Of a stretch of 10,056 nt of DNA, positions 1 through 10,056 are shown piece by piece. Each line of letters begins with the position of its first letter. The stretch's first letter is position 1. A model generated the notes under the pieces. It was not told the origin of the DNA. It ran no database searches and worked only from the letters and a program-made list of their open reading frames with translations. A program made the position numbers and the translations under genes. The DNA is from Promethearchaeota archaeon (GTDB lineage: Archaea > Asgardarchaeota > Lokiarchaeia > Sigyniarchaeales > SOKP01), in the NCBI GenBank assembly GCA_048940445.1, contig JBHLON010000072.1, positions 1 through 10,056 on the forward strand, read 5' to 3'.

Positions 1-2922
1 TTAATTGAGTCAAGTACTAGTATTGGGGGAGTAATGGCACAACTTGATAAGACATTCCCCACAAATGACTGTGCTATGTGCATTGTAAGCCCTAAACTAG
101 TAGAAACAGGAAGACATCAGAATATAGACTTAAGTATTAAATGTAAAATTGAAGATGTTAGTGGAGAAGCTGGAAATTTTAAAGTTAAAGTATTAAAAAA
201 GTCATTATTTATTAATCCTGACAAATGTACTGGATGTGGTGTTTGTGGACGTGAATGTCCTGTCGAAGCTATTGATGTATTTAATGAGGGTTTATCCATG
301 TATGGTGCTACATCAGTTAAATATCCACAAGCAGTTCCTCTTGTTTACGCTATAAATAGGGATTATTGTATTGGATGTGGGATTTGCCAAGGAGTGTGTA
401 AAGCTAAGGCAGTGGAATATGATAGAGAAGATGAAAAAGTTGAATTAAATGTGGGAGCCATAATTTTAGCTCCAGGTTTTGAAGAATATATTCCATCAGA
501 AGCAAATCTTTATGGGTATGGAAAATATAAAAACGTAGTTACTAGTATAGAGTTTGAAAGGATACTAAGTGCCAGCGGTCCTTATGCTGGTAGAGTTTTA
601 AGGCCTTCCGATGGAGATATACCTGAAAAAGTTGCATTTCTTCAATGTATTGGATCTCGTGATTATAGCGGAAATGGACAACCATATTGTTCTTCAGTTT
701 GTTGCATGTACACAGCTAAAGAAGCAGTTATTGCCCATGAACATATGCATCAAATAAAACCAACGATCTTTAGTATGGATGTGAGAGCATACGGAAAGGA
801 TTTTGATAAATACATCGAACGCGCACAGGAAGAATATGGAGTTCAATATATAAGAAGTCGTATTTCATCGATTAAAGAAGTACCAGAGACAAAAGATCTA
901 AGGATAAGATATGAGACCGAAGATGGAAAAGTATTGGAAGAAGACTTTCAGATGGTAGTCCTGGCTGTTGGATTAAATCCGCCTAATGATGCACAATATC
1001 TTTCTGAAAAGTTTGGTATAGAATTAAATGAATTTGGTTTTGCCAAAGCAGACAAATTTAACTCTGTTCAGTCATCAAAGCCAGGAATATTTATTTGTGG
1101 CGCATTTTCTTCTCCAAAAGATATTCCTGATACGGTCACTCAAGCTAGTGCCGCTGCTGGATGTGTGAATCAACTTTTATATGAACAACGAGGAACCTTA
1201 ATAACTGAAAAAACATTACCTCCTGAAATATACGTCAATGGTCAGCCTCCTAGAGTTGGTGTTTTTATCTGTCATTGCGGGATCAATATTGGAGGGTTTG
1301 TGGATGTACCAGAAGTCACAAAGTATGCAAGTAATCTTCCAAATGTGGTTTTAGCAGATCGTAATCTCTATACATGCTCAGCAGATACTCAAACAATAAT
1401 AAAAGATAAAATAGCAGAATACCATCTTAACCGAGTTATAGTTGCATCGTGTACCCCAAGAACCCATGAACCATTATTTCAAGAAACAATTAGAGAAGCT
1501 GGATTAAATAGGTATTTATTTCAAATGGCAAATATAAGAGATCAGTGTTCTTGGGTTCATATGAACGAACCAGAAAAAGCCACGCAGAAAGCAAAAGATT
1601 TGGTGAGAATGGCAGTAAATAAAGCTAGGAGGATAGAACCCATTGACAGAATTAAGTTACCTGTCACTTCAAAAGCACTGGTTATTGGAGGGGGAATTAG
1701 CGGAATGACTGCCGCCCTTAATTTTGCTAGCCAAGAATTTGAAACATATTTAGTTGAAAAACAAGAAGAATTAGGAGGATTTGCAAAACATATATACCAC
1801 ACACTTGAAAAAGCTAATGTTCAAGAATTTTTATCTAATTTGATCTCTAAGGTTAAATCAAATAAATTCATTCATACTTATACTGATGCTGAAATCGAAA
1901 ATATTGATGGATACATCGGTAATTTCAAAACTTCGATTTTATATGGAAAAAATAAAGAAACTACAGAATTTGAACATGGTGTTGTTGTTGTTGCCACAGG
2001 AGCAAAAGAATACCAACCGAATGAATTTCTCTATGGCCAAAATGATAAAGTAATCCTCCAATCTGAATTAGAAAAATTATTAAATACCACAAATAAAATA
2101 AAGAACACAAAATCCATAGTAATGATACAATGTGTAGGATCAAGAAATAAGGAACATCCTTATTGTAGTAAGATGTGTTGTGCTGAGGCTGTTAAAAATG
2201 CCTTATTAGTAAAAGAGAAATATCCAAATGTAGAAGTAACAATTCTATTTCGTGATATTCGGACTTATGGATTTAAAGAGAAGTATTATCGAATGGCACG
2301 TGAACAAGGAGTTATTTTTCTTCAATATGATGAGAATAACCCTCCTAAAGTGAGTTCAGAAAATTCTGAGTTAAAAGTGGAAGTTAATACACCCCGAGGG
2401 GAAAAAGTGAATATTGTATCTGATTTATTGGTTTTAAGTGCAGGAATATATGCAGACCGAGATGAAAATGAAGACTTAGCAAAGATGTTAAAAGTTCCTC
2501 TCAATGACGATAATTTCTTTTTAGAGGCTCATGTAAAATTGCGTCCAGTAGATTTTGCAACAGAGGGAGTATTTGTTGCGGGTTTAGCACACTGTCCAAA
2601 AACCATTGAGGACTCTATTGCTCAAGCTAATGCAGCAGTTTCTAGGGCTTGTACAATATTATCTAAAGATGAGATAGAGGCGGAGGGAAAAACAGCAACG
2701 ATTATTGCGGAACGCTGCACAGGGTGTGGAATGTGTGTAGAGAACTGTGCTTATAATGCAATCGAGTTAATTGATGACAGGAGATTCGGAAGAATTGCTA
2801 AGGTTAATCAAGCGCTATGTAAAGGATGCGGTGCTTGCTCTGGTAATTGCAGATGTGCTGCGATAGATGTGTTAGGGTTTTCGGGTGAACAAATATATGC
2901 TATGATAACTGGGAGGTGTTAA
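1..2922 (+). CDS. hdrA: Tandem (two-module) heterodisulfide reductase subunit A-like FAD/Fe-S flavoprotein, 5'-truncated by the window edge
   Basis: Frame 1 is open from base 1 (LIESSTSIGGVMAQLDKTFPTNDCAMCI). This is an internal HdrA motif, so ATG 34 is not the true start. Motifs: ferredoxin CxxCxxCxxxC at 226-258 and 367-399; QCIGSRD...YCSSVCCMY; internal RVGVFICHCG...CS...SCTPRTHEPLF...NIRDQCSWVH; second Rossmann motif VIGGGISG (1681-1704); QCVGSR...YCSKMCC; FFLEAHVKLRPVDF; two C-terminal ferredoxin motifs (2716-2856). Confidence 0.96.
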   Translation, partial: LIESSTSIGGVMAQLDKTFPTNDCAMCIVSPKLVETGRHQNIDLSIKCKIEDVSGEAGNFKVKVLKKSLFINPDKCTGCGVCGRECPVEAIDVFNEGLSMYGATSVKYPQAVPLVYAINRDYCIGCGICQGVCKAKAVEYDREDEKVELNVGAIILAPGFEEYIPSEANLYGYGKYKNVVTSIEFERILSASGPYAGRVLRPSDGDIPEKVAFLQCIGSRDYSGNGQPYCSSVCCMYTAKEAVIAHEHMHQIKPTIFSMDVRAYGKDFDKYIERAQEEYGVQYIRSRISSIKEVPETKDLRIRYETEDGKVLEEDFQMVVLAVGLNPPNDAQYLSEKFGIELNEFGFAKADKFNSVQSSKPGIFICGAFSSPKDIPDTVTQASAAAGCVNQLLYEQRGTLITEKTLPPEIYVNGQPPRVGVFICHCGINIGGFVDVPEVTKYASNLPNVVLADRNLYTCSADTQTIIKDKIAEYHLNRVIVASCTPRTHEPLFQETIREAGLNRYLFQMANIRDQCSWVHMNEPEKATQKAKDLVRMAVNKARRIEPIDRIKLPVTSKALVIGGGISGMTAALNFASQEFETYLVEKQEELGGFAKHIYHTLEKANVQEFLSNLISKVKSNKFIHTYTDAEIENIDGYIGNFKTSILYGKNKETTEFEHGVVVVATGAKEYQPNEFLYGQNDKVILQSELEKLLNTTNKIKNTKSIVMIQCVGSRNKEHPYCSKMCCAEAVKNALLVKEKYPNVEVTILFRDIRTYGFKEKYYRMAREQGVIFLQYDENNPPKVSSENSELKVEVNTPRGEKVNIVSDLLVLSAGIYADRDENEDLAKMLKVPLNDDNFFLEAHVKLRPVDFATEGVFVAGLAHCPKTIEDSIAQANAAVSRACTILSKDEIEAEGKTATIIAERCTGCGMCVENCAYNAIELIDDRRFGRIAKVNQALCKGCGACSGNCRCAAIDVLGFSGEQIYAMITGRC
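2912..2918 (+). promoter_or_regulatory. Shine-Dalgarno site for mvhD, embedded in the hdrA 3' end
   Basis: GGAGGTG 7 nt before GTG 2926, complementary to the conserved 16S rRNA 3' end. Confidence 0.8.
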
Positions 2923-2925
2923 AAA

Positions 2926-3381
2926 GTGACAATACAGACAAAACAAGAAGAAAGTACAACTGAAGAATGGGAGCCAAAAATTATAGCATTTTTATGTAAT
3001 TGGTGTTCCTATGCGGGAGCAGATTTAGCAGGAGTTAGTAGGATCCAATATCCACCTTCAATTAGAGTCGTAAGGGTTCCATGTTCTGGCAGAGTAAACC
3101 CTTACTTTATTATAAAGAGCCTAGTAGATGGATGGGACGGAGTACTTGTCTCAGGATGCCATCCTGGAGATTGTCATTATCTTACTGGAAATTTAGTTGC
3201 TAGAAGAAGATTCGCTATCTTAGAAGAATTATTAGAGTTTTTTGGAATAGAGCCCGGAAGAGTAAATTTTATGTGGGCCTCTGCTGCTGAAGGCGAAAGA
3301 TTTGCTAATCTAGTTAAAAAAGCTACAAAAATAGTTAAAAAGTTAGGGCCAAATAAAAAATTCAGTAAAAACTGGTGTTAA
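2926..3381 (+). CDS. mvhD: MvhD/FlxD family [2Fe-2S] protein (hydrogenase iron-sulfur subunit delta-like HdrA adaptor)
   Basis: Hallmark motifs FLCNWCSYAGADLAG, RVPCSGRV, GCHPGDCHY, WASAAEGERF. GTG start 3 nt after the hdrA stop, with SD GGAGGTG at 2912-2918. Confidence 0.96.
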   Translation: MTIQTKQEESTTEEWEPKIIAFLCNWCSYAGADLAGVSRIQYPPSIRVVRVPCSGRVNPYFIIKSLVDGWDGVLVSGCHPGDCHYLTGNLVARRRFAILEELLEFFGIEPGRVNFMWASAAEGERFANLVKKATKIVKKLGPNKKFSKNWC

Positions 3382-3383
3382 TA

Positions 3384-4403
3384 ATGGCGATTGACAAAGA
3401 AAATATTGAAATTGAAAACATGATAAGAGAAACAGCAAGATCACTTCTAAAGGATAAAGAAGTTGATGTAATCATTGGGTATACGAATGGAACGGTTCCA
3501 TTAAGTTCGAGTCCAATCATAATAACTAAGGAAGAAGATGTAGATAAATTAATTTGGAATAATCTTTGTTATATAAATCTAGCCCGATATCTAGTACCAA
3601 AAATCCCTCAACTTACTGATCCAGAAAAGGGAAATTTAAAAGTAGGAATCGTATCGAAGGGTTGTGTCGGGAGAGCACTAATTCACTTATCAGTTGAAAA
3701 ACAAATAAATATGGAAAATATAAAGATAATTGGAATTCCCTGCAATGGTATCATTAATCGAAAGAAAATTGAAAAAGAAGTTGGAGAAAAAGAAATTTTG
3801 GAAGTTATTACCTCTGGAAATGATATAATCGTGAAAGGAAATGATTTTGAACAAAAATTTCCATATGAAGAATATATTAATGAGTTATGTAAAGTATGTA
3901 ATGTTAAATCTCCTCCAACTTCAGCAGAAATAGCAAATATATGTAGTGGTAAATGTCAAGAAATAAGTTCCGTCGATGACAATTTTGAGGATTTAGAGGA
4001 ATATGAATCGAAAACACCGGATGAAAAATGGGATTTTATAAAAGAATCGTTAGAAATTTGCACTAGATGTTATGCTTGTCGAGAAGCGTGCCCTATGTGT
4101 TATTGCAATTTATGTTTTGTAGATCAAAATAAACCAATTTGGTTTGGAAAAACTACAGAATTATCAGATGTAGTTGTATTTCATCTTGTTCGCGCCATGC
4201 ATTTAGCAGGGCGATGTGTAGCTTGTGGGGCATGTACTAGTGTTTGTCCTGTAGGGATTGATTTGAATTTTATTACGAGAAAATTAGAAAAAATAGTTAA
4301 AGAAAGATTTAATTTTACATCTGGGATTGATTCGAAAAGAATGCCTCCTATGATGGATTTTGATATGAAAGATGCTGAAGAATTTATGTTAGAAGAAGAT
4401 TAA
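3384..4403 (+). CDS. flxC: FlxC-like 4Fe-4S dicluster protein (FdhB-related)
   Basis: CTRCYACREACPMCYCNLC and HLAGRCVACGACTSVCP motifs, typical of the FdhB/FlxC C-terminus; lies between mvhD and an AsrA-like gene. Start moved from GTG 3375 to ATG 3384 because GGTG (3374-3377) reads as an SD 6 nt upstream and the ATG follows the mvhD stop. Confidence 0.85.
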   Translation: MAIDKENIEIENMIRETARSLLKDKEVDVIIGYTNGTVPLSSSPIIITKEEDVDKLIWNNLCYINLARYLVPKIPQLTDPEKGNLKVGIVSKGCVGRALIHLSVEKQINMENIKIIGIPCNGIINRKKIEKEVGEKEILEVITSGNDIIVKGNDFEQKFPYEEYINELCKVCNVKSPPTSAEIANICSGKCQEISSVDDNFEDLEEYESKTPDEKWDFIKESLEICTRCYACREACPMCYCNLCFVDQNKPIWFGKTTELSDVVVFHLVRAMHLAGRCVACGACTSVCPVGIDLNFITRKLEKIVKERFNFTSGIDSKRMPPMMDFDMKDAEEFMLEED

Positions 4404-4407
4404 AAAG

Positions 4408-5475
4408 GTGATAAAAATAGAGCAAAAAATTTTATTGAAAAGTGAAATAGGAAAGTTATATATTGAGCTTGCTGAAGAATTCAATTTTTTTGCCCCGGTT
4501 AAAGAAAAGGGGAATCTAGTCTTTAAAAAAATATTGAACCCTGACGAGATTGTTCTTGATTATTTTAATTCCAAAGTCCCTCCAAAAGAGATTTTATTCC
4601 CAAAAATGGAGGTGCTCTTTGAATATAAAACTGATGGTAAAGATGTTACTGAAATTATAGAAAGAACCGATTTAGATGAGAAAAATATAATATTTGGCAT
4701 ACGACCCTGTGATGCACATAGTTTTGTGCTCTTAGAAGATTTTTTTGCCTTTGGGGAATTTCAAGATGAAATCTTCCTTAAAAAAAGAAAAAATTCTATC
4801 ATTATTGGAATTGGATGTAATAATCCAAGAAGCACATGTTTTTGTACGTCAATAGAAGGACATCCCTTCATGAAAGAAGATATGGATATCTTTTTAGTAG
4901 ATTTGGGCGAGAAATATTTAGTTGAAGGGATCAGTGAAAGGGGGAAAGAATTACTCAATAGATTTGAATGGCTTACAAATGCTAAAAAGCAGGATATTAA
5001 AAAAGCAGAAGAATTATCCAAGCAGGCAGAAGAATCATTTGTTACTCATTTAGATTTAAAGGATATAGATAAGATATTAGATCCTAATTTTGAACATCCA
5101 ATTTGGCAGGAAATCAGTGAAGTTTGTATAGGATGTGGAACTTGCTCGTTCCTATGTCCTACATGTACTTGCTTTGATGTAATTGATGAAAATGATCAAT
5201 ATAATAATAAAGGGAGGAGGATTAGGATTTGGGATACATGTCAATCTTGTTTATATACTTTGCATACAAGTGGTCATAATCCACGAGATAGTGGGATTGA
5301 GCGCTGCAGAAATAGAATTTTACACAAGTTCTGTTATTATCCTGAAAATTATGACATTCTAGGATGTGTTGGATGTGGGAGATGCATTCAATTATGTCCA
5401 GTAAATAATGATCTTAGAGAAATTATTGGGAAAATTAAAAAAATAAAAATAGAGGAGGAAAAAGTAAGTGCATAA
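4408..5475 (+). CDS. flxB: FlxB-like (AsrA / sulfhydrogenase beta family) 4Fe-4S protein
   Basis: GIRPCD, GCNNPRSTCFCTS, CIGCGTCSFLCPTCTCFD, RIWDTC and GCVGCGRCIQLCP motifs; synteny. Start is uncertain (GTG 4408 or ATA 4417). Confidence 0.88.
   Translation: MIKIEQKILLKSEIGKLYIELAEEFNFFAPVKEKGNLVFKKILNPDEIVLDYFNSKVPPKEILFPKMEVLFEYKTDGKDVTEIIERTDLDEKNIIFGIRPCDAHSFVLLEDFFAFGEFQDEIFLKKRKNSIIIGIGCNNPRSTCFCTSIEGHPFMKEDMDIFLVDLGEKYLVEGISERGKELLNRFEWLTNAKKQDIKKAEELSKQAEESFVTHLDLKDIDKILDPNFEHPIWQEISEVCIGCGTCSFLCPTCTCFDVIDENDQYNNKGRRIRIWDTCQSCLYTLHTSGHNPRDSGIERCRNRILHKFCYYPENYDILGCVGCGRCIQLCPVNNDLREIIGKIKKIKIEEEKVSA
5452..5458 (+). promoter_or_regulatory. Shine-Dalgarno site for flxA, embedded in the flxB 3' end
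   Basis: GAGGAGG 9 nt before GTG 5468; the GGAGG-to-start distance equals that at the mvhD site. Confidence 0.75.
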
Positions 5476-6307
5476 TCCATATATTCCATTATTAACAACT
5501 GTAAAAAGTATTATAGCTGAAAATAAAATAAATGATATTAAAACATTAGAATTAGAATTTAAAAACGAAAAAGATTATAAAGATTTTAACTATATTCCAG
5601 GACAATTTGCCGAAATAAGCATAATCGGGAAAGGAGAGTGTCCAATTGGGATTGCATCATCACCAACAGAAGAAGGCTCGATTAAATTCACCATTAAGAA
5701 AATGGGGACCGTAACCACTGCGCTACATAATTGCGATATTGGTGATACGGTAGGAGTTAGAGGACCTTGTGGTAATGGCTGGCCAATTGAAGAAATGAAA
5801 GGAAAAAATATTGTTATTATCGGAGGAGGATTTGCATTTTCAACCTTACGTTCACTTATAATCTATATGTTAGATGAAAAATATAGAAAAGACTATAAAA
5901 GTATTACCGTAATTTATGGAAATCGTGATTCGGGAGAAGTACTTTATCAAGAAGATCTAGAGGCATGGAAGAAAAGAGACGACATAAAAGTTATATTAAC
6001 AATCGATCGTGAAGAAGAAGGATGGAAAGATAAAGTCGGATTTGTAGCTCCTGTTGTTAAAGAAGTTGCCCCTTCTTCTGATAATGCAGTAGCTGTTGTA
6101 TGTGGTCCTCCTATTATGATTAAAACGACCATCGCAGTACTTGAAGAATTGAAATTTGAAGATGCTCAAATTTTAAATTCATTAGAAATGAGAATGAAAT
6201 GTGGAATCGGTAAATGTGGGAGATGTAATATTGGTAATAAATTTGTATGCGTGGATGGTCCAGTGTTTTCATTGGCAGAGTTAAAGAAAATGCCAAATGA
6301 ATATTAA
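5468..6307 (+). CDS. flxA: FlxA-like FAD/NAD(P)-binding [2Fe-2S] oxidoreductase (AsrB/PyrK/HydG family)
   Basis: PGQF, GIASSP, RGPCGNGW, GGGFAFSTLRS, VCGPPIM and EMRMKCGIGKCGRCNIG...VCVDGPVF motifs. GTG start overlaps flxB by 8 nt; SD GAGGAGG at 5452-5458. Confidence 0.92.
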   Translation: MHNPYIPLLTTVKSIIAENKINDIKTLELEFKNEKDYKDFNYIPGQFAEISIIGKGECPIGIASSPTEEGSIKFTIKKMGTVTTALHNCDIGDTVGVRGPCGNGWPIEEMKGKNIVIIGGGFAFSTLRSLIIYMLDEKYRKDYKSITVIYGNRDSGEVLYQEDLEAWKKRDDIKVILTIDREEEGWKDKVGFVAPVVKEVAPSSDNAVAVVCGPPIMIKTTIAVLEELKFEDAQILNSLEMRMKCGIGKCGRCNIGNKFVCVDGPVFSLAELKKMPNEY

Positions 6308-6338
6308 TTTAAAATTAAAATAAATAAAAGGGAAAAAA

Positions 6339-7454
6339 ATGGTTGAAGAAGTTATTCCTAAATCTTTTGAAGATTTAATAAAGGATGTTCATGAACCCGG
6401 AATTTGTGGAGAATGTGGGGGTTGTGTTAGTTTTTGTTCTGCTCATGATATTAAGGCAATTGAAATGCCCGAAAGTGGCCCTCCAAGATATTACAATAAA
6501 GATAATTGTTTAAAATGTGGAATTTGTTATTTAGTATGTCCTCAAACTCATGTATTAGATGAAGAACTAAATAAGAAATATAATTATAAAACATCAATTG
6601 GAAACTGGGTCAAAATAACTTCAGCTCAGGCTAATTCAAAAGAAGTTCGTGATAAAGCTACAGATGGAGGGGTAGTAACAGCAGTATTAATGTATTTACT
6701 CGAAAAAAACCTAATAAATGGAGCTATCGTGTCAAAAAAAGAAGGTCCATTTAATCGATTTCCATTCTTTGCTACTACAAAGGAAGATTTAATAGAGGCT
6801 GCTGGTTCCCAATATGATATTTCTCAGGGGGTCGTAACTTTAGAGAAATACAACTCATTTGTTCCTACAATAACAGAATTAAAATCTGTCGTTGCTTCGG
6901 ATGCAATGAATATTGCAGTTGTAGGAACCCCATGTCAAATAATGTCTATCAGGAAGATGCAAGAATTGAGCATTCTTCCAGCTCATATTATAAAATTTAC
7001 CTTAGGGTTATTTTGCAATTTGAATTTTTCATTTGATGCCAAGACTCGTAAAAAATTAGAAGAAAAATTCAATTTCTCATTTGATGACGTTGAGAATTTA
7101 AACATAAAAGAAAATTTAATCATTGAGCTCAAAAATAATCAAATTAAATACATTGATTTTAAAGATCTTCATGAATTTGCAAGAGCAGCTTGTTTTGCTT
7201 GTCGTGATTTTTCCAATGTTTACGCGGATATTTCTTTTGGGGGCTTAGGATCTAGAGATGGTTATACAACTTCAATAATTAGAACAAAGATTGGCGAAAA
7301 ATTATATAATAATGCTTTAAAGGAAGGATATATAAAAGAAACCCCTGAATTTAATACATCAGTTAAGAAATCAGAGATGTTAGCTAAAGTGATAAGTTTT
7401 GGTAAAAGAAAATATGAAAGATACCTTAAAGCTTTTAAACAGCGTTCTCAATGA
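6339..7454 (+). CDS. frhB: Coenzyme F420 hydrogenase/dehydrogenase beta subunit family protein (FrhB/FpoF-like) with N-terminal 2x[4Fe-4S] domain
   Basis: N-terminal CGECGGCVSFC and CLKCGICYLVCP; FAD-binding DGGVVT, AAGSQY, VVGTPCQ, LGLFC, ACFACRDF...ADISFGGLGS. The symbol is family-level only, as no frhA/G is adjacent. Confidence 0.92.
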   Translation: MVEEVIPKSFEDLIKDVHEPGICGECGGCVSFCSAHDIKAIEMPESGPPRYYNKDNCLKCGICYLVCPQTHVLDEELNKKYNYKTSIGNWVKITSAQANSKEVRDKATDGGVVTAVLMYLLEKNLINGAIVSKKEGPFNRFPFFATTKEDLIEAAGSQYDISQGVVTLEKYNSFVPTITELKSVVASDAMNIAVVGTPCQIMSIRKMQELSILPAHIIKFTLGLFCNLNFSFDAKTRKKLEEKFNFSFDDVENLNIKENLIIELKNNQIKYIDFKDLHEFARAACFACRDFSNVYADISFGGLGSRDGYTTSIIRTKIGEKLYNNALKEGYIKETPEFNTSVKKSEMLAKVISFGKRKYERYLKAFKQRSQ

Positions 7455-7471
7455 AATTTGTAGATTATAAT

Positions 7472-7484
7472 AACTTTTTTCTCT
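7472..7484 (+). terminator. Putative archaeal oligo(T) terminator of the hdrA-flx-frhB operon
   Basis: T6 run (7475-7480) followed by CTCT, 20 nt after the frhB stop. Confidence 0.5.
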
Positions 7485-7510
7485 AGAATTTATTAGAAAC
7501 GATAAAAAAT

Positions 7511-7525
7511 CCAAAAATTTATATC
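7511..7525 (+). promoter_or_regulatory. Candidate BRE/TATA promoter for the Lrp gene
   Basis: CCAAAAA followed by TTTATAT (7518-7524). Alternative TATA-like runs at 7559-7575 would give a leaderless transcript. The AT-rich background limits certainty. Confidence 0.4.
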
Positions 7526-7593
7526 AAATTTCCATTATTTTATTCACAAAAATCGCTATTTTAAAACTTTAAAAAAATTATTGGTCAATATAG

Positions 7594-8022
7594 ATGAGTA
7601 ATATAGATGAAATCGACAAAGTAATTTTAGAGACACTCAAAACTAACAGTAGAATATCTTATAATGAGATCTCTCAAAAAGTAGGGAAGACTGAAGCAAC
7701 AGTAAGACGAAGAGTACAAAAATTGATAGAAGATGGCATAATTACTAAATTTACTATTGATTATGATATAAAAAGTAAACCTAAAACTTTCGCAACGGTT
7801 AAGGTTATTCCAGACTTGAAGAATATTAAAGATATATTAAGGGATTTGGATACAGTGGAGGAAATAACTAGTATTTGGAGATTAAGTGGAGACTGCGGCC
7901 TTTTATTGAAAGTTGAGTTAGCATCCATTGAAGAAATCAATCCTTTAATAGAAGAAAAAATCTCACAGATTAATGGTATAAAAATTGTTGAGACCTGTTT
8001 TATTACTGATGTCATAAAATGA
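7594..8022 (+). CDS. Lrp/AsnC family transcriptional regulator
   Basis: IDEIDKVILETLKTNSRISYNEISQKVGKTEATVRRRVQKLIEDGII is the classic Lrp N-terminal HTH. C-terminal RAM-like domain (WRLSGDCGLLLKV); 142 aa. Confidence 0.95.
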   Translation: MSNIDEIDKVILETLKTNSRISYNEISQKVGKTEATVRRRVQKLIEDGIITKFTIDYDIKSKPKTFATVKVIPDLKNIKDILRDLDTVEEITSIWRLSGDCGLLLKVELASIEEINPLIEEKISQINGIKIVETCFITDVIK

Positions 8023-8024
8023 TT

Positions 8025-8999
8025 TCAAAATTGAAAAATATTTCCAGTATTATAGATTGTAGCATCTAACTCAAGATTAATTTGGCCTCCGGAAGAAATT
8101 TCTATTGCATTATTTATACCTTCCAATACTCGATTCATCATAAATTCAAATGCTCTAAAACAATCTTTGAGTTGTGTATCATTTTTCTCTGCAATACAAT
8201 TAGACATTGCAGGTATTAACGCAGGGATAAAATCTTGACTTATCATTATTTCTTCAGCATCAATCATAGTTTCCTTTGCTAACGTAAATGGAGTGAAAAC
8301 ATCCATTTTACCAAACATTACTTTACATACAAATAAAGATGCTTTAATTTCTTTCATGATAAATTTAATCCTATTTTTGTCATCTAAGAATTTCTTAAAG
8401 GTAATAGCGTTGATGATATCTTCATTTGTTATCGTCTTTGATGTATCCATAAGTTCACTAACTCTTTCAGACACCCGTTTCGTAGAAAGCATTAATTTGA
8501 GATTCATTTTGTTCCGTTTATAATAGTCGTTATAGAATCTAGAAAGAAAATTGTGTGCACCCAGTCCTTTTTGGTCTTCTGGAACATCTAGAGTATAATT
8601 CTTAGATTTAAATTTATCCATAAAGTGTTTTATAAATAAGAACTTTAACTTTAATCTATGTAATGCCAAATATAAACATACACGAGTTTTTGTATAAGCT
8701 ACTACATTTCCCATTCGAAACCTATCATGGTGGTCTCTCTCATACATTACAATTGGTTTTAATTTATTCACCACAACATCAATAAAATATTCTATTATCC
8801 TCTCTAAAGGCTCGCAATCAATAACTCTATATAATTCAATGAGCTTCTGACTCGAAGGTTGGCTTTGGGGTAGTTCCTTTATTTCATCATAATTATAATA
8901 CTCCAGAAATAAAGCTGTAAGGGCCTCCATTTCTAACACTGTACGACAAGGAATAAAAACCTTATTTAAGTCATATAAAATGGTTCCGCTTTCAGGCAT
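8025..8999 (-). CDS. Hypothetical soluble, probably alpha-helical protein (324 aa)
   Basis: 975-nt ORF in AT-rich DNA that fills the gap between lrp and the divergent intergenic region. An in-frame TAG two codons upstream fixes the ATG as the earliest start. No recognisable motif, signal peptide or TM helix. Confidence 0.85.
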   Translation of the reverse strand: MPESGTILYDLNKVFIPCRTVLEMEALTALFLEYYNYDEIKELPQSQPSSQKLIELYRVIDCEPLERIIEYFIDVVVNKLKPIVMYERDHHDRFRMGNVVAYTKTRVCLYLALHRLKLKFLFIKHFMDKFKSKNYTLDVPEDQKGLGAHNFLSRFYNDYYKRNKMNLKLMLSTKRVSERVSELMDTSKTITNEDIINAITFKKFLDDKNRIKFIMKEIKASLFVCKVMFGKMDVFTPFTLAKETMIDAEEIMISQDFIPALIPAMSNCIAEKNDTQLKDCFRAFEFMMNRVLEGINNAIEISSGGQINLELDATIYNTGNIFQF

Positions 9000-9155
9000 A
9001 ACCTATAATCTCTTTATTACTTCATTTTTTAGAAGAAAAATTGAATGGCTTTCTAAAATTTTGGCATTTTTAATATAAAAAAATATCCAATCATCAAAAT
9101 TAAAACTTTCCATGAACATTGAAGTATGAGAATATTCTTCCATATGAAAAAATCA

Positions 9156-9188
9156 AAGGAAATTTTATAAAGGATAATATCGATATTA
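9156..9188 (+). promoter_or_regulatory. Candidate BRE/TATA promoter with adjacent palindromic operator for the surface-protein gene
   Basis: Purine-rich AAGGAAA, then TTTTATAA (9163-9170), then the perfect palindrome TAATATCGATATTA (9175-9188). Confidence 0.55.
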
Positions 9189-9224
9189 AGCACATCTTAA
9201 GACAAAAATAAACTCAGAAATACC

Positions 9225-10022
9225 ATGAATCTAAAAAAGATATTACTAAAAATTTATTTATTTGTTGCATTATCAGTATGTATATTTCCCATATCAAGTG
9301 TAATCGCTATTGATTTTGACCCACCACCGATAAGTCCATATCAAGGAGCTTATTGGGGTGTGAATATAGGTGATATCTTCCGTTGGAATGCGACTGGATA
9401 CCACAATGATAACATACTAGGATCAACGGAGATTTGTTTTAAAATAAATGGTACAGATTTAACCACTGTATATGGTGATAAGTACTACTGCTTGAAAGTC
9501 AGACCAATGATATATAATAAAACACTGGGAATATTTCAAGAAGATCCACTATCTATGGGCTTAGCAAATGTATCTTTAGTTAATTTTACTTTATCCAAGA
9601 TGTATGCTACGTCCCCAGGCAGTGAACCGATTACCCTTTTCATACCCAAATTAGACAATCAACTAATGACAGATTGGTGTGCAGAAGCATCTTATTTTCA
9701 ATATAAAGGCCACTTTGATCCTGCGAAATCCCCTGGAATTTACACAACTACCAATACAATCCGCTATTATAATGAAACGTCTGGTGACTTTATAGAAATG
9801 CAATTCTGCAATGATGGATCCTTAAAGTCTTGTTATAAACAGCTATCATATTTTTATGGTTATTCTTATAATTACACTTTAGAAGTTGAGCGATTATACC
9901 CTGAATGTGAAGAAATTACAAATCCGTCACCAACAATTCCTCTTGGAATCTCCTTCTTCTTAATCCTTACAATCGCAATGGTTAGTTTACTCGTTTATAC
10001 TTTAAATAAAAAATTAAAATAG
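9225..10022 (+). CDS. Secreted, C-terminally membrane-anchored surface (glyco)protein of unknown function
   Basis: Signal peptide MNLKKILLKIYLFVALSVCIFPISSVIA; seven N-x-S/T sequons; Pro/Thr linker, then IPLG, a hydrophobic helix and a basic tail (NKKLK). Confidence 0.88.
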   Translation: MNLKKILLKIYLFVALSVCIFPISSVIAIDFDPPPISPYQGAYWGVNIGDIFRWNATGYHNDNILGSTEICFKINGTDLTTVYGDKYYCLKVRPMIYNKTLGIFQEDPLSMGLANVSLVNFTLSKMYATSPGSEPITLFIPKLDNQLMTDWCAEASYFQYKGHFDPAKSPGIYTTTNTIRYYNETSGDFIEMQFCNDGSLKSCYKQLSYFYGYSYNYTLEVERLYPECEEITNPSPTIPLGISFFLILTIAMVSLLVYTLNKKLK

Positions 10023-10040
10023 TTTTTTTTATTATTTTCT
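10023..10040 (+). terminator. Putative archaeal oligo(T) terminator
   Basis: T8 run immediately after the TAG stop, followed by ATTATTTTCT. Confidence 0.55.
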
Positions 10041-10056
10041 AAATTTGAGTCAAAAA

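Follow-up and report, generated by a model that had tools for sequence, protein, structure and literature searches.

The DNA analyzed here, a 10,056-nt stretch to which we refer as the window, is an entire contig (C60) of a metagenome-assembled genome (MAG) of a Promethearchaeota (Asgard) archaeon, and it covers the downstream two-thirds of a conserved operon of 11 genes in the order hdrC-hdrB-hdrA'-hdrA''-mvhD (with a predicted winged-helix tail)-fused hdrA'A''-flxD-flxC-flxB-flxA-frhB. We consider it probable that these genes encode one soluble, hydrogenase-free Hdr-Flx system for electron bifurcation or confurcation that would have two ports for hydride carriers, one for NAD(P)H in FlxA and one for F420 in the FrhB-like protein. 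The use of two such donors appears plausible on the basis of gene content, gene order, and the known relatives of the encoded proteins.

Extent and gene content of the operon

The assembly (3.64 Mb in 139 contigs, 30% GC) is 93% complete. Six open reading frames (ORFs), all on the + strand, fill positions 1-7454 of the window, and both their coordinates and their junctions (gaps of 3, 4 and 31 nt at the first, third and fifth, and overlaps of 7 and 8 nt at the second and fourth) were reproduced as given in the original prediction, a reading of the window made from its sequence; Pfam and NCBIfam content also agrees with the domain labels assigned there to all six genes. The features are as follows.

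1-1245, + strand: N-terminal half of the fused hdrA'A'' gene (ORF 1-2922), 5' end cut; TrxR-like FAD domain; aligns to 5ODC_A 171-510
1246-2922, + strand: C-terminal half of the same gene; residues 416-588 align to 5ODC_A 3-175, and residues 824-971 to 502-648
2926-3381, + strand: flxD, MvhD-type [2Fe-2S] connector with five conserved Cys; PF02662, 176 bits; 5ODC_D, E 7e-50
3375-4403, + strand: flxC, Fe-S protein with a C-terminal 2x[4Fe-4S] domain
4408-5475, + strand: flxB, Fe-S subunit like sulfhydrogenase beta or AsrA (HydB/AsrA-like Fer4_22); PF17179, 106 bits; 9NEZ_B, E 5e-48
5468-6307, + strand: flxA, NAD(P)H-binding FAD/[2Fe-2S] subunit like sulfhydrogenase gamma, AsrB or PyrK (HydG/AsrB-like); PF00175, PF00970, PF10418; 9NEZ_C, E 4e-51
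6308-6338, + strand: flxA-frhB spacer, 31 nt, with a Shine-Dalgarno (SD)-like AAGGG ~8 nt before the ATG
6339-7454, + strand: frhB-like gene for a putative plug-in F420-reductase module; PF04422, PF04432; N-terminal 2x[4Fe-4S] ferredoxin domain (residues ~1-85), then an FAD/[4Fe-4S] domain
7475-7480, + strand: T6 tract, a possible archaeal termination signal, 20 nt past the frhB stop

The operon had been thought to consist of these six genes; they are real and co-directional, but the operon comprises 11 genes, the first of the six being cut by the start of the contig. The true ATG of this gene lies 93 nt upstream, on contig C13, which gives a full-length product of 1004 aa. The last 77 nt of C13 are the first 77 nt of C60, this 77-mer is unique in the assembly, and the end of C13 carries hdrC, hdrB and the genes for HdrA' (435 aa), HdrA'' (559 aa) and MvhD (253 aa). 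The same 11-gene order was found on unbroken contigs of 7 relatives, and likewise in G007, where an additional frhB and an additional hdrAA-mvhD unit are present. Because of the unique overlap and of the identical gene order on these unbroken contigs, we regard the join between C13 and C60 as valid. The upstream search that the original prediction recommended thus yielded hdrC and hdrB and none of MvhAG, FrhAG or FdhA; more generally, no hydrogenase or Fdh catalytic gene was seen among the 11 genes or the Pfam-scanned ORFs in the last ~12 kb of C13, and NiFe hydrogenases are encoded elsewhere in the genome. At the other end, the oligo(T) tract reported after frhB is indeed there, even though on its own it is weak evidence for termination, as T-runs are frequent at 30% GC. 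A scan for sigma-70 promoters and intrinsic terminators gave results at or below shuffled expectation, with models that are uninformative for an archaeon.

The FrhB-like protein and its association with the Hdr and Flx genes

The FrhB-like protein matches FrhB_N with 69.4 bits and FrhB_C with 128.5 bits (Pfam cut-offs, 22 and 23.3), and its best solved relatives are FwdI (8RJA_E, E 3.6e-51; query residues 9-349 align full-length to residues 4-337) and ACDS-zeta (8RIU_B, E 2.2e-36). Both subunits come from Ca. Ethanoperedens thermophilum; in each, an N-terminal 2x[4Fe-4S] domain anchors the FAD/[4Fe-4S] F420-reductase part to its host enzyme, and measurements showed that F420 is reduced (8RJA, 8RIU; PMC11493965). 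The architecture of our protein is the same; the known modules are attached to Fwd or CODH, whereas this one is encoded beside Hdr/Flx. It carries two Cx2Cx2Cx3C motifs (residues 23-33 and 57-67), and all 12 of its Cys are invariant among orthologues and in a paralogue that is 46% identical. Reactivity with F420, as initially proposed for this protein, is therefore supported by its kinship with FwdI and ACDS-zeta and by the presence of F420 biosynthesis genes: CofD, two CofE and CofG all score above cut-off, CofH is split across two contig ends, and the organism is accordingly predicted to make F420. CofG occurs in 61 of the 68 genomes of the host family and in 0 of 7 of the sister family. The two cofH halves lie at G000:C70:7338-7733, where cofG adjoins, and at G000:C61:4-708, an arrangement suggesting that these two contigs are neighbours in the genome.

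Synteny was studied in 80 loci from related genomes, with a 10-kb flank taken per locus. In 58 of the 80 (type 1), flxA is followed by a co-directional frhB after a gap of 12-58 nt (median, 42), and this held for every one of the 58 loci with upstream DNA and Flx genes; a contiguous string from hdrA' to frhB was visible within the flank in 35 of them, and hdrCB was kept in every locus extending that far. A lack of such conservation had been named in the original prediction as a reason to drop the proposal, which these loci leave standing. Fifteen other loci (type 2) have a frhB ~62% identical to ours and divergent from hdrC-hdrB-hdrA'-hdrA''-mvhD-hdrAA-mvhD, without flxCBA, and 7/80 were interrupted by contig ends; some MAGs carry both types. 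Because a paralogous FrhB stays in the 15 loci that lack flxCBA, FrhB appears to belong with the HdrA/MvhD core, and not specifically with FlxA. The idea that the link between FrhB and Hdr is older than Flx was also considered, and found unsupported: in a quick maximum-likelihood tree of FrhB, whose midpoint rooting leaves the direction of change unsettled, the type-2 proteins form one clade (SH-aLRT, 95) that is sister to four type-1 genes, and the Flx-less type 2 is probably derived.

An SD-like 4-mer was found at -16 to -4 in 39 of 59 orthologous spacers, such elements lying mostly 7-10 nt before the start codon, and 20 frhB orthologues start with TTG or GTG. Such sites and starts are more consistent with translation initiating internally on a polycistronic mRNA than with a separate, leaderless frhB transcript. 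In two relatives, frhB has an in-frame stop (G018:C170:21389-22498 and G196:C31:48135-49244; one each, TAG and TAA), which may reflect sequencing errors or pseudogenes.

With the exception of a few evidently mislabelled bins, all 80 loci come from Promethearchaeota/Promethearchaeia (Asgard, Loki-type) MAGs, which agrees with the archaeal origin initially ascribed to the window, and the best 120 FrhB homologues in the protein search belong to the same Asgard clade. Within one family, 48 of the 68 genomes sampled, belonging to 8 genera, have an FrhB orthologue (at least 60% identity), against 0/232 genomes from 29 other families of the phylum. As for the unusual bins, a MAG titled 'Candidatus Nanopelagicaceae bacterium' (DATKTW010000106.1 and DATKTW010000161.1; L064 and L100) carries Asgard-type frhB/hdr loci, and other MAGs of the same genus are titled Hermod-, Odin-, Hod- or Thorarchaeota; such bins are probably mislabelled or mixed.

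HdrA, HdrB, HdrC and Flx subunits

The operon encodes two asymmetric HdrA units, one split (HdrA' and HdrA'') and one fused. In the fused protein, the N-terminal half has the Cys194/Cys197 equivalents, an NDCxxC motif and an inserted 2x[4Fe-4S] ferredoxin domain, and has neither the N-terminal domain nor the C-terminal ferredoxin domain; the C-terminal half possesses the N-terminal [4Fe-4S] domain as well as a C-terminal 2x[4Fe-4S] ferredoxin domain, and its FAD domain, the second in the protein, lacks both Cys197 and the inserted ferredoxin domain. HdrA' shares the pattern of the N-terminal half (Cys194/Cys197 equivalents and inserted ferredoxin domain), and HdrA'', like the C-terminal half, shows the reverse. 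Per unit there is hence just one N-domain/Cys197 cluster, one inserted domain that faces ferredoxin and one C-terminal domain that faces MvhD, and equivalents of E356 and K409, which mark the bifurcating FAD, are present in all four halves. With two TrxR/FAD domains and a complementary N-domain and Cys197, the fused protein is a fused complementary ('type II') HdrA, and it scores below the NCBIfam equivalog cut-offs for canonical methanogen HdrA (935 bits vs 1100 for HdrA2, and 735 vs 1400 for HdrA). Complementary halves, as proposed for heterodimeric HdrA in anaerobic methanotrophic (ANME) archaea (PMC9012536), imply an obligate heterodimer-like unit.

One MvhD-type connector, with five conserved Cys, follows each HdrA unit. 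HdrB has both CCG-type non-cubane cluster motifs complete (C9-x31-CC-x34-CxxC and C151-x39-CC-x34-CxxC; PF02754 matches two stretches), HdrC has two Cx2Cx2Cx3C motifs, and FlxA has a C-terminal C-x4-C-x2-C-x7-C motif; cofactor Cys motifs are all intact across the operon proteins. FlxB is closest to the beta and FlxA to the gamma subunit of P. furiosus sulfhydrogenase I (9NEZ), which react with NADP(H). The gene order resembles that of Flx-Hdr systems, as was originally noted: hdrC, hdrB, hdrA, flxD, flxC, flxB and flxA are co-directional, with the extra hdrA and mvhD genes inserted, FlxD is of the MvhD type, and FlxA has FAD, NAD(P) and [2Fe-2S] domains, all with Pfam scores above cut-offs.

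The N-terminal ~175 residues of FlxC possibly adopt a degenerate FrhB/FdhB-like fold, similar to an FdhB/ElpB-like subunit. Residues ~7-195 (window 3375-3900) give faint FrhB_N and FrhB_C Pfam matches, and 6 of the 9 best fold matches of an AlphaFold2 model, itself weak (predicted local distance difference test, pLDDT, 55), are FrhB-family chains (Z 4.5-7.7; ElpB at 7.7, FrhB and FwdI, with HCAR among the best). In a profile-profile comparison with FrhB (hhalign), only the ferredoxin motif was aligned, with a probability of 38%. Given the poor model and this negative comparison, the fold is to be taken as a lead only.

Accessory features and other redox loci

Additional genes of interest surround the operon or are found elsewhere in the genome. 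The MvhD between the HdrA units (L001 (G000:C13) 14987-15748, + strand) has a conserved C-terminal tail of ~120 residues, for which a high-confidence model (pLDDT, 86 overall) predicts a winged helix of the ArsR/SmtB type; its match to Pfam HTH_5 is slightly below cut-off, and the tail is retained in type-1 and type-2 loci. Directly upstream of hdrC, two tandem small genes (L001 (G000:C13) 9824-10024 and ~10076-10357, + strand) share a domain of ~40 residues with 8 Cys (C-x2-C-x-C-x5-6-C-x11-CC-x2-C-x8-9-C) that has no match in Pfam or NCBIfam. Two or three co-directional copies precede hdrC in 8/8 type-1 relatives reaching that far, the hdrC-proximal copy showing an apparent ATC, ATT or TTG start in some genomes, and the encoded microproteins are candidate redox partners of the complex. 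DsrC (PF04358) was not found in the 93%-complete genome.

Downstream of frhB, and convergent to it, orf8 (8025-8999, - strand, 324 aa) is found at that position in most type-1 loci with 63-92% identity; Pfam assigned it to no family, and the protein atlas gave nothing usable. An Lrp/AsnC gene at 7594-8022 is confined to the closest relatives. The last 77 nt of the window (9979-10056) are also those with which contig C72 (32.8 kb) begins when read as its reverse complement, so the downstream neighbourhood can probably be extended.

The genome has about a dozen HdrA paralogues in total. At L002 (G000:C47:116000-133000), positions 2673-9671 (+ strand) carry a canonical hdrC-hdrB-hdrA(674 aa)-flxDCBA set with no frhB, whose Flx proteins are 68-80% identical to those of the window; convergent to it (9698-15935, - strand), a 1647-aa fusion unites two HdrA copies, the first of which carries an inserted GltD/NfnB-like NAD(P)H module, with MvhD, and is preceded by an HdrD-like fused HdrCB. 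At L003/L004 (G000:C134:140000-170000), the order is hdrA-mvhD-frhB(501 aa)-frhB(370 aa)-hdrD-like-hdrAA(1027 aa)-mvhD, and the 370-aa FrhB is the paralogue that shares 46% identity with ours.

Relation to known systems

FlxABCD-HdrABC is known from several anaerobes, among them Desulfovibrio vulgaris (Ramos et al. 2015, cited in PMC12054007), and has also been noted in Asgard archaea (Imachi et al. 2020, PMC7015854). In sulfate reducers, DsrC is the proposed acceptor of the NADH-dependent Flx-Hdr activity. The D. vulgaris-type system has in common with ours the order hdrC-hdrB-hdrA...flxD-flxC-flxB-flxA, an FAD/NAD(P) FlxA, Fe-S FlxB and FlxC and an MvhD-like FlxD, and neither has a hydrogenase. 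Here, however, a split HdrA'/HdrA'' pair and the winged-helix-tailed MvhD are added, the HdrA is a fused complementary double instead of a single full-length protein, an FrhB-type module is found at the end of the operon, and no DsrC was found in the genome.

The closest parallel for the F420 port is Elp-Hdr (ElpABC-HdrABC of Methanothermobacter marburgensis, 8RVU), an F420H2-fed complex of known structure and biochemistry, with a subunit of the FdhB/FrhB family and an MvhD homologue (PMC12350162). There, an FrhB/FdhB-family flavoprotein oxidizes F420H2 and feeds HdrA through Fe-S clusters and an MvhD homologue, the same role is predicted here, and neither system depends on a hydrogenase. Our system differs in that no ElpA/FdhA-like (molybdopterin-fold) subunit is encoded among the 11 genes or the ORFs scanned in the last ~12 kb of C13, FrhB carries its ferredoxin domain at the N terminus, as FwdI does, instead of at the C terminus, the HdrA pair is asymmetric while that of Elp-Hdr is a homodimer, an NAD(P)H Flx module is added, and the host is a non-methanogen. 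Fused or tandem HdrA and HdrA-linked FrhB/FdhB are likewise known in methane-metabolising archaea (PMC9012536). The complementarity is common to the tandem or fused HdrA of ANME archaea and Moorella (HdrA3/4, 5/6 and 12/13, PMC9012536; 'type II HdrA', PMC12054007), and the ANME clusters also contain FrhB/FdhB (PMC9012536). The halves here, however, are in the opposite order to those of ANME HdrA3/4, with the Cys197 half first, the host is an Asgard archaeon without methane metabolism, and the cluster adds FlxCBA.

The operon is thus a new combination of known parts: we found no description of a single Hdr operon that combines an FrhB module with an NAD(P)H module of the Flx type in the literature searched, whose coverage is incomplete and includes few subscription papers. 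The original statement that no characterized complex has such a composition holds for the combination, but not for its parts, each of which is known (PMC7015854, PMC9012536, PMC12350162).

Proposed mechanism and alternative explanations

In the mechanism we favor, hydride would enter or leave at FlxA, with NAD(P)H, and at FrhB, with F420/F420H2, and electrons would travel via Fe-S chains and the [2Fe-2S] clusters of MvhD to the FADs of HdrA. There they would be split, one share going to ferredoxin by way of the inserted ferredoxin domains and the other to a thiol/disulfide couple at HdrB. The cell might in this way use either the NAD(P)H or the F420H2 pool, or balance both, with reduced ferredoxin as a product or a substrate. 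The redox potentials of NAD(P)H and F420H2 are nearly equal, and for this reason a dual-donor bifurcating enzyme is the simplest reading. The route from F420H2 through an FrhB-family FAD, Fe-S clusters and an MvhD-type cluster to HdrA should be workable, as Elp-Hdr shows the same route (PMC12350162).

Several observations weigh against this proposal. The operon holds one HdrBC for two HdrA units, which bears on stoichiometry and wiring. The FrhB-like protein falls below the NCBIfam equivalog cut-offs for FrhB (TIGR03289, 174 vs 331.5 bits) and FpoF (NF040616, 105 vs 475), and would therefore represent a separate subfamily, in a family where some members (HCAR) do not use F420. In the genome, Mtd was not found, and Mer and Fno were seen only below cut-off, so that F420 consumers are not evident. 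Lastly, it is possible that frhB has an internal promoter inside flxA.

Among the alternatives, the one that fares best, even though we consider it unlikely, is that the operon encodes two separate, co-regulated enzymes, namely an F420H2-dependent Hdr analogous to Elp-Hdr (FrhB, MvhD, one HdrA pair and HdrBC) and an NAD(P)H-dependent Flx-HdrA unit. In its favor, both the HdrA unit and MvhD are encoded twice, the Hdr core and FrhB do without flxCBA in the 15 type-2 loci, and the same genome has on C47 a canonical hdrCBA-flxDCBA set without frhB. In all 58 type-1 loci, however, frhB is located at the Flx end and not beside hdrCB; with a single hdrBC, the Flx-linked unit would be left without a high-potential acceptor; and both HdrA units and both MvhDs stay together in Flx-less loci, which suggests that they act as one entity.

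It is also conceivable, with a lower probability still, that the system is mainly an Nfn-like transhydrogenase among NAD(P)H, F420 and ferredoxin, in which HdrBC would be accessory or regulatory. The reaction first suggested along this line, reduced ferredoxin (Fdred) + NADH -> F420H2, is unbalanced as written; an example of what such an enzyme might catalyze is reduced ferredoxin + NAD(P)H + 2 F420 -> 2 F420H2, or the reverse. One operon does bring together two hydride ports of nearly equal potential and exit domains of the ferredoxin type, the genome has neither Fno above cut-off nor a recognized DsrC, and a substrate of the CoM/CoB type is not expected in a non-methanogen. Yet HdrB retains its two complete non-cubane motifs, hdrCB is present in every locus that reaches that far, and the Flx-less loci would be incapable of the reaction and retain the same core.

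A more elaborate version, to which we assign a similarly low probability, would have a single megacomplex with two serial or parallel asymmetric bifurcating HdrA units act as an Nfn-like NAD(P)H/F420H2/ferredoxin hub, in a cell with no recognizable Fno, where the partner of HdrB would be the 8-Cys microproteins rather than a small-molecule heterodisulfide or DsrC. Least likely of all is that the FrhB-like subunit does not react with F420 and is instead an FAD/Fe-S electron-transfer or ferredoxin-dependent subunit like its HCAR/BciB-type relatives, since the low equivalog scores, the distant kinship with HCAR and the failure of Mtd and Mer to score above cut-off are countered by the twelve best solved relatives, all of them subunits of F420-dependent enzymes (E down to 3.6e-51, vs 7e-6 for HCAR), and by the F420 biosynthesis genes, with CofG widespread in the family.

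Implications for Asgard archaea

No prokaryotes known are closer to eukaryotes than the Asgard archaea, and nearly everything said about how they conserve energy has been deduced from genome sequences. In a host family with a dozen HdrA and many FrhB paralogues, the 11-gene Hdr-Flx-FrhB operon is among the best-conserved redox loci. If the dual-donor reading is true, the operon would connect three cofactor pools of these archaea, those of NAD(P)H, F420 and ferredoxin, and its product would be the first Hdr with two different hydride-carrier modules. The operon also offers a concrete, purifiable target to address what HdrBC reduces in a non-methanogen.

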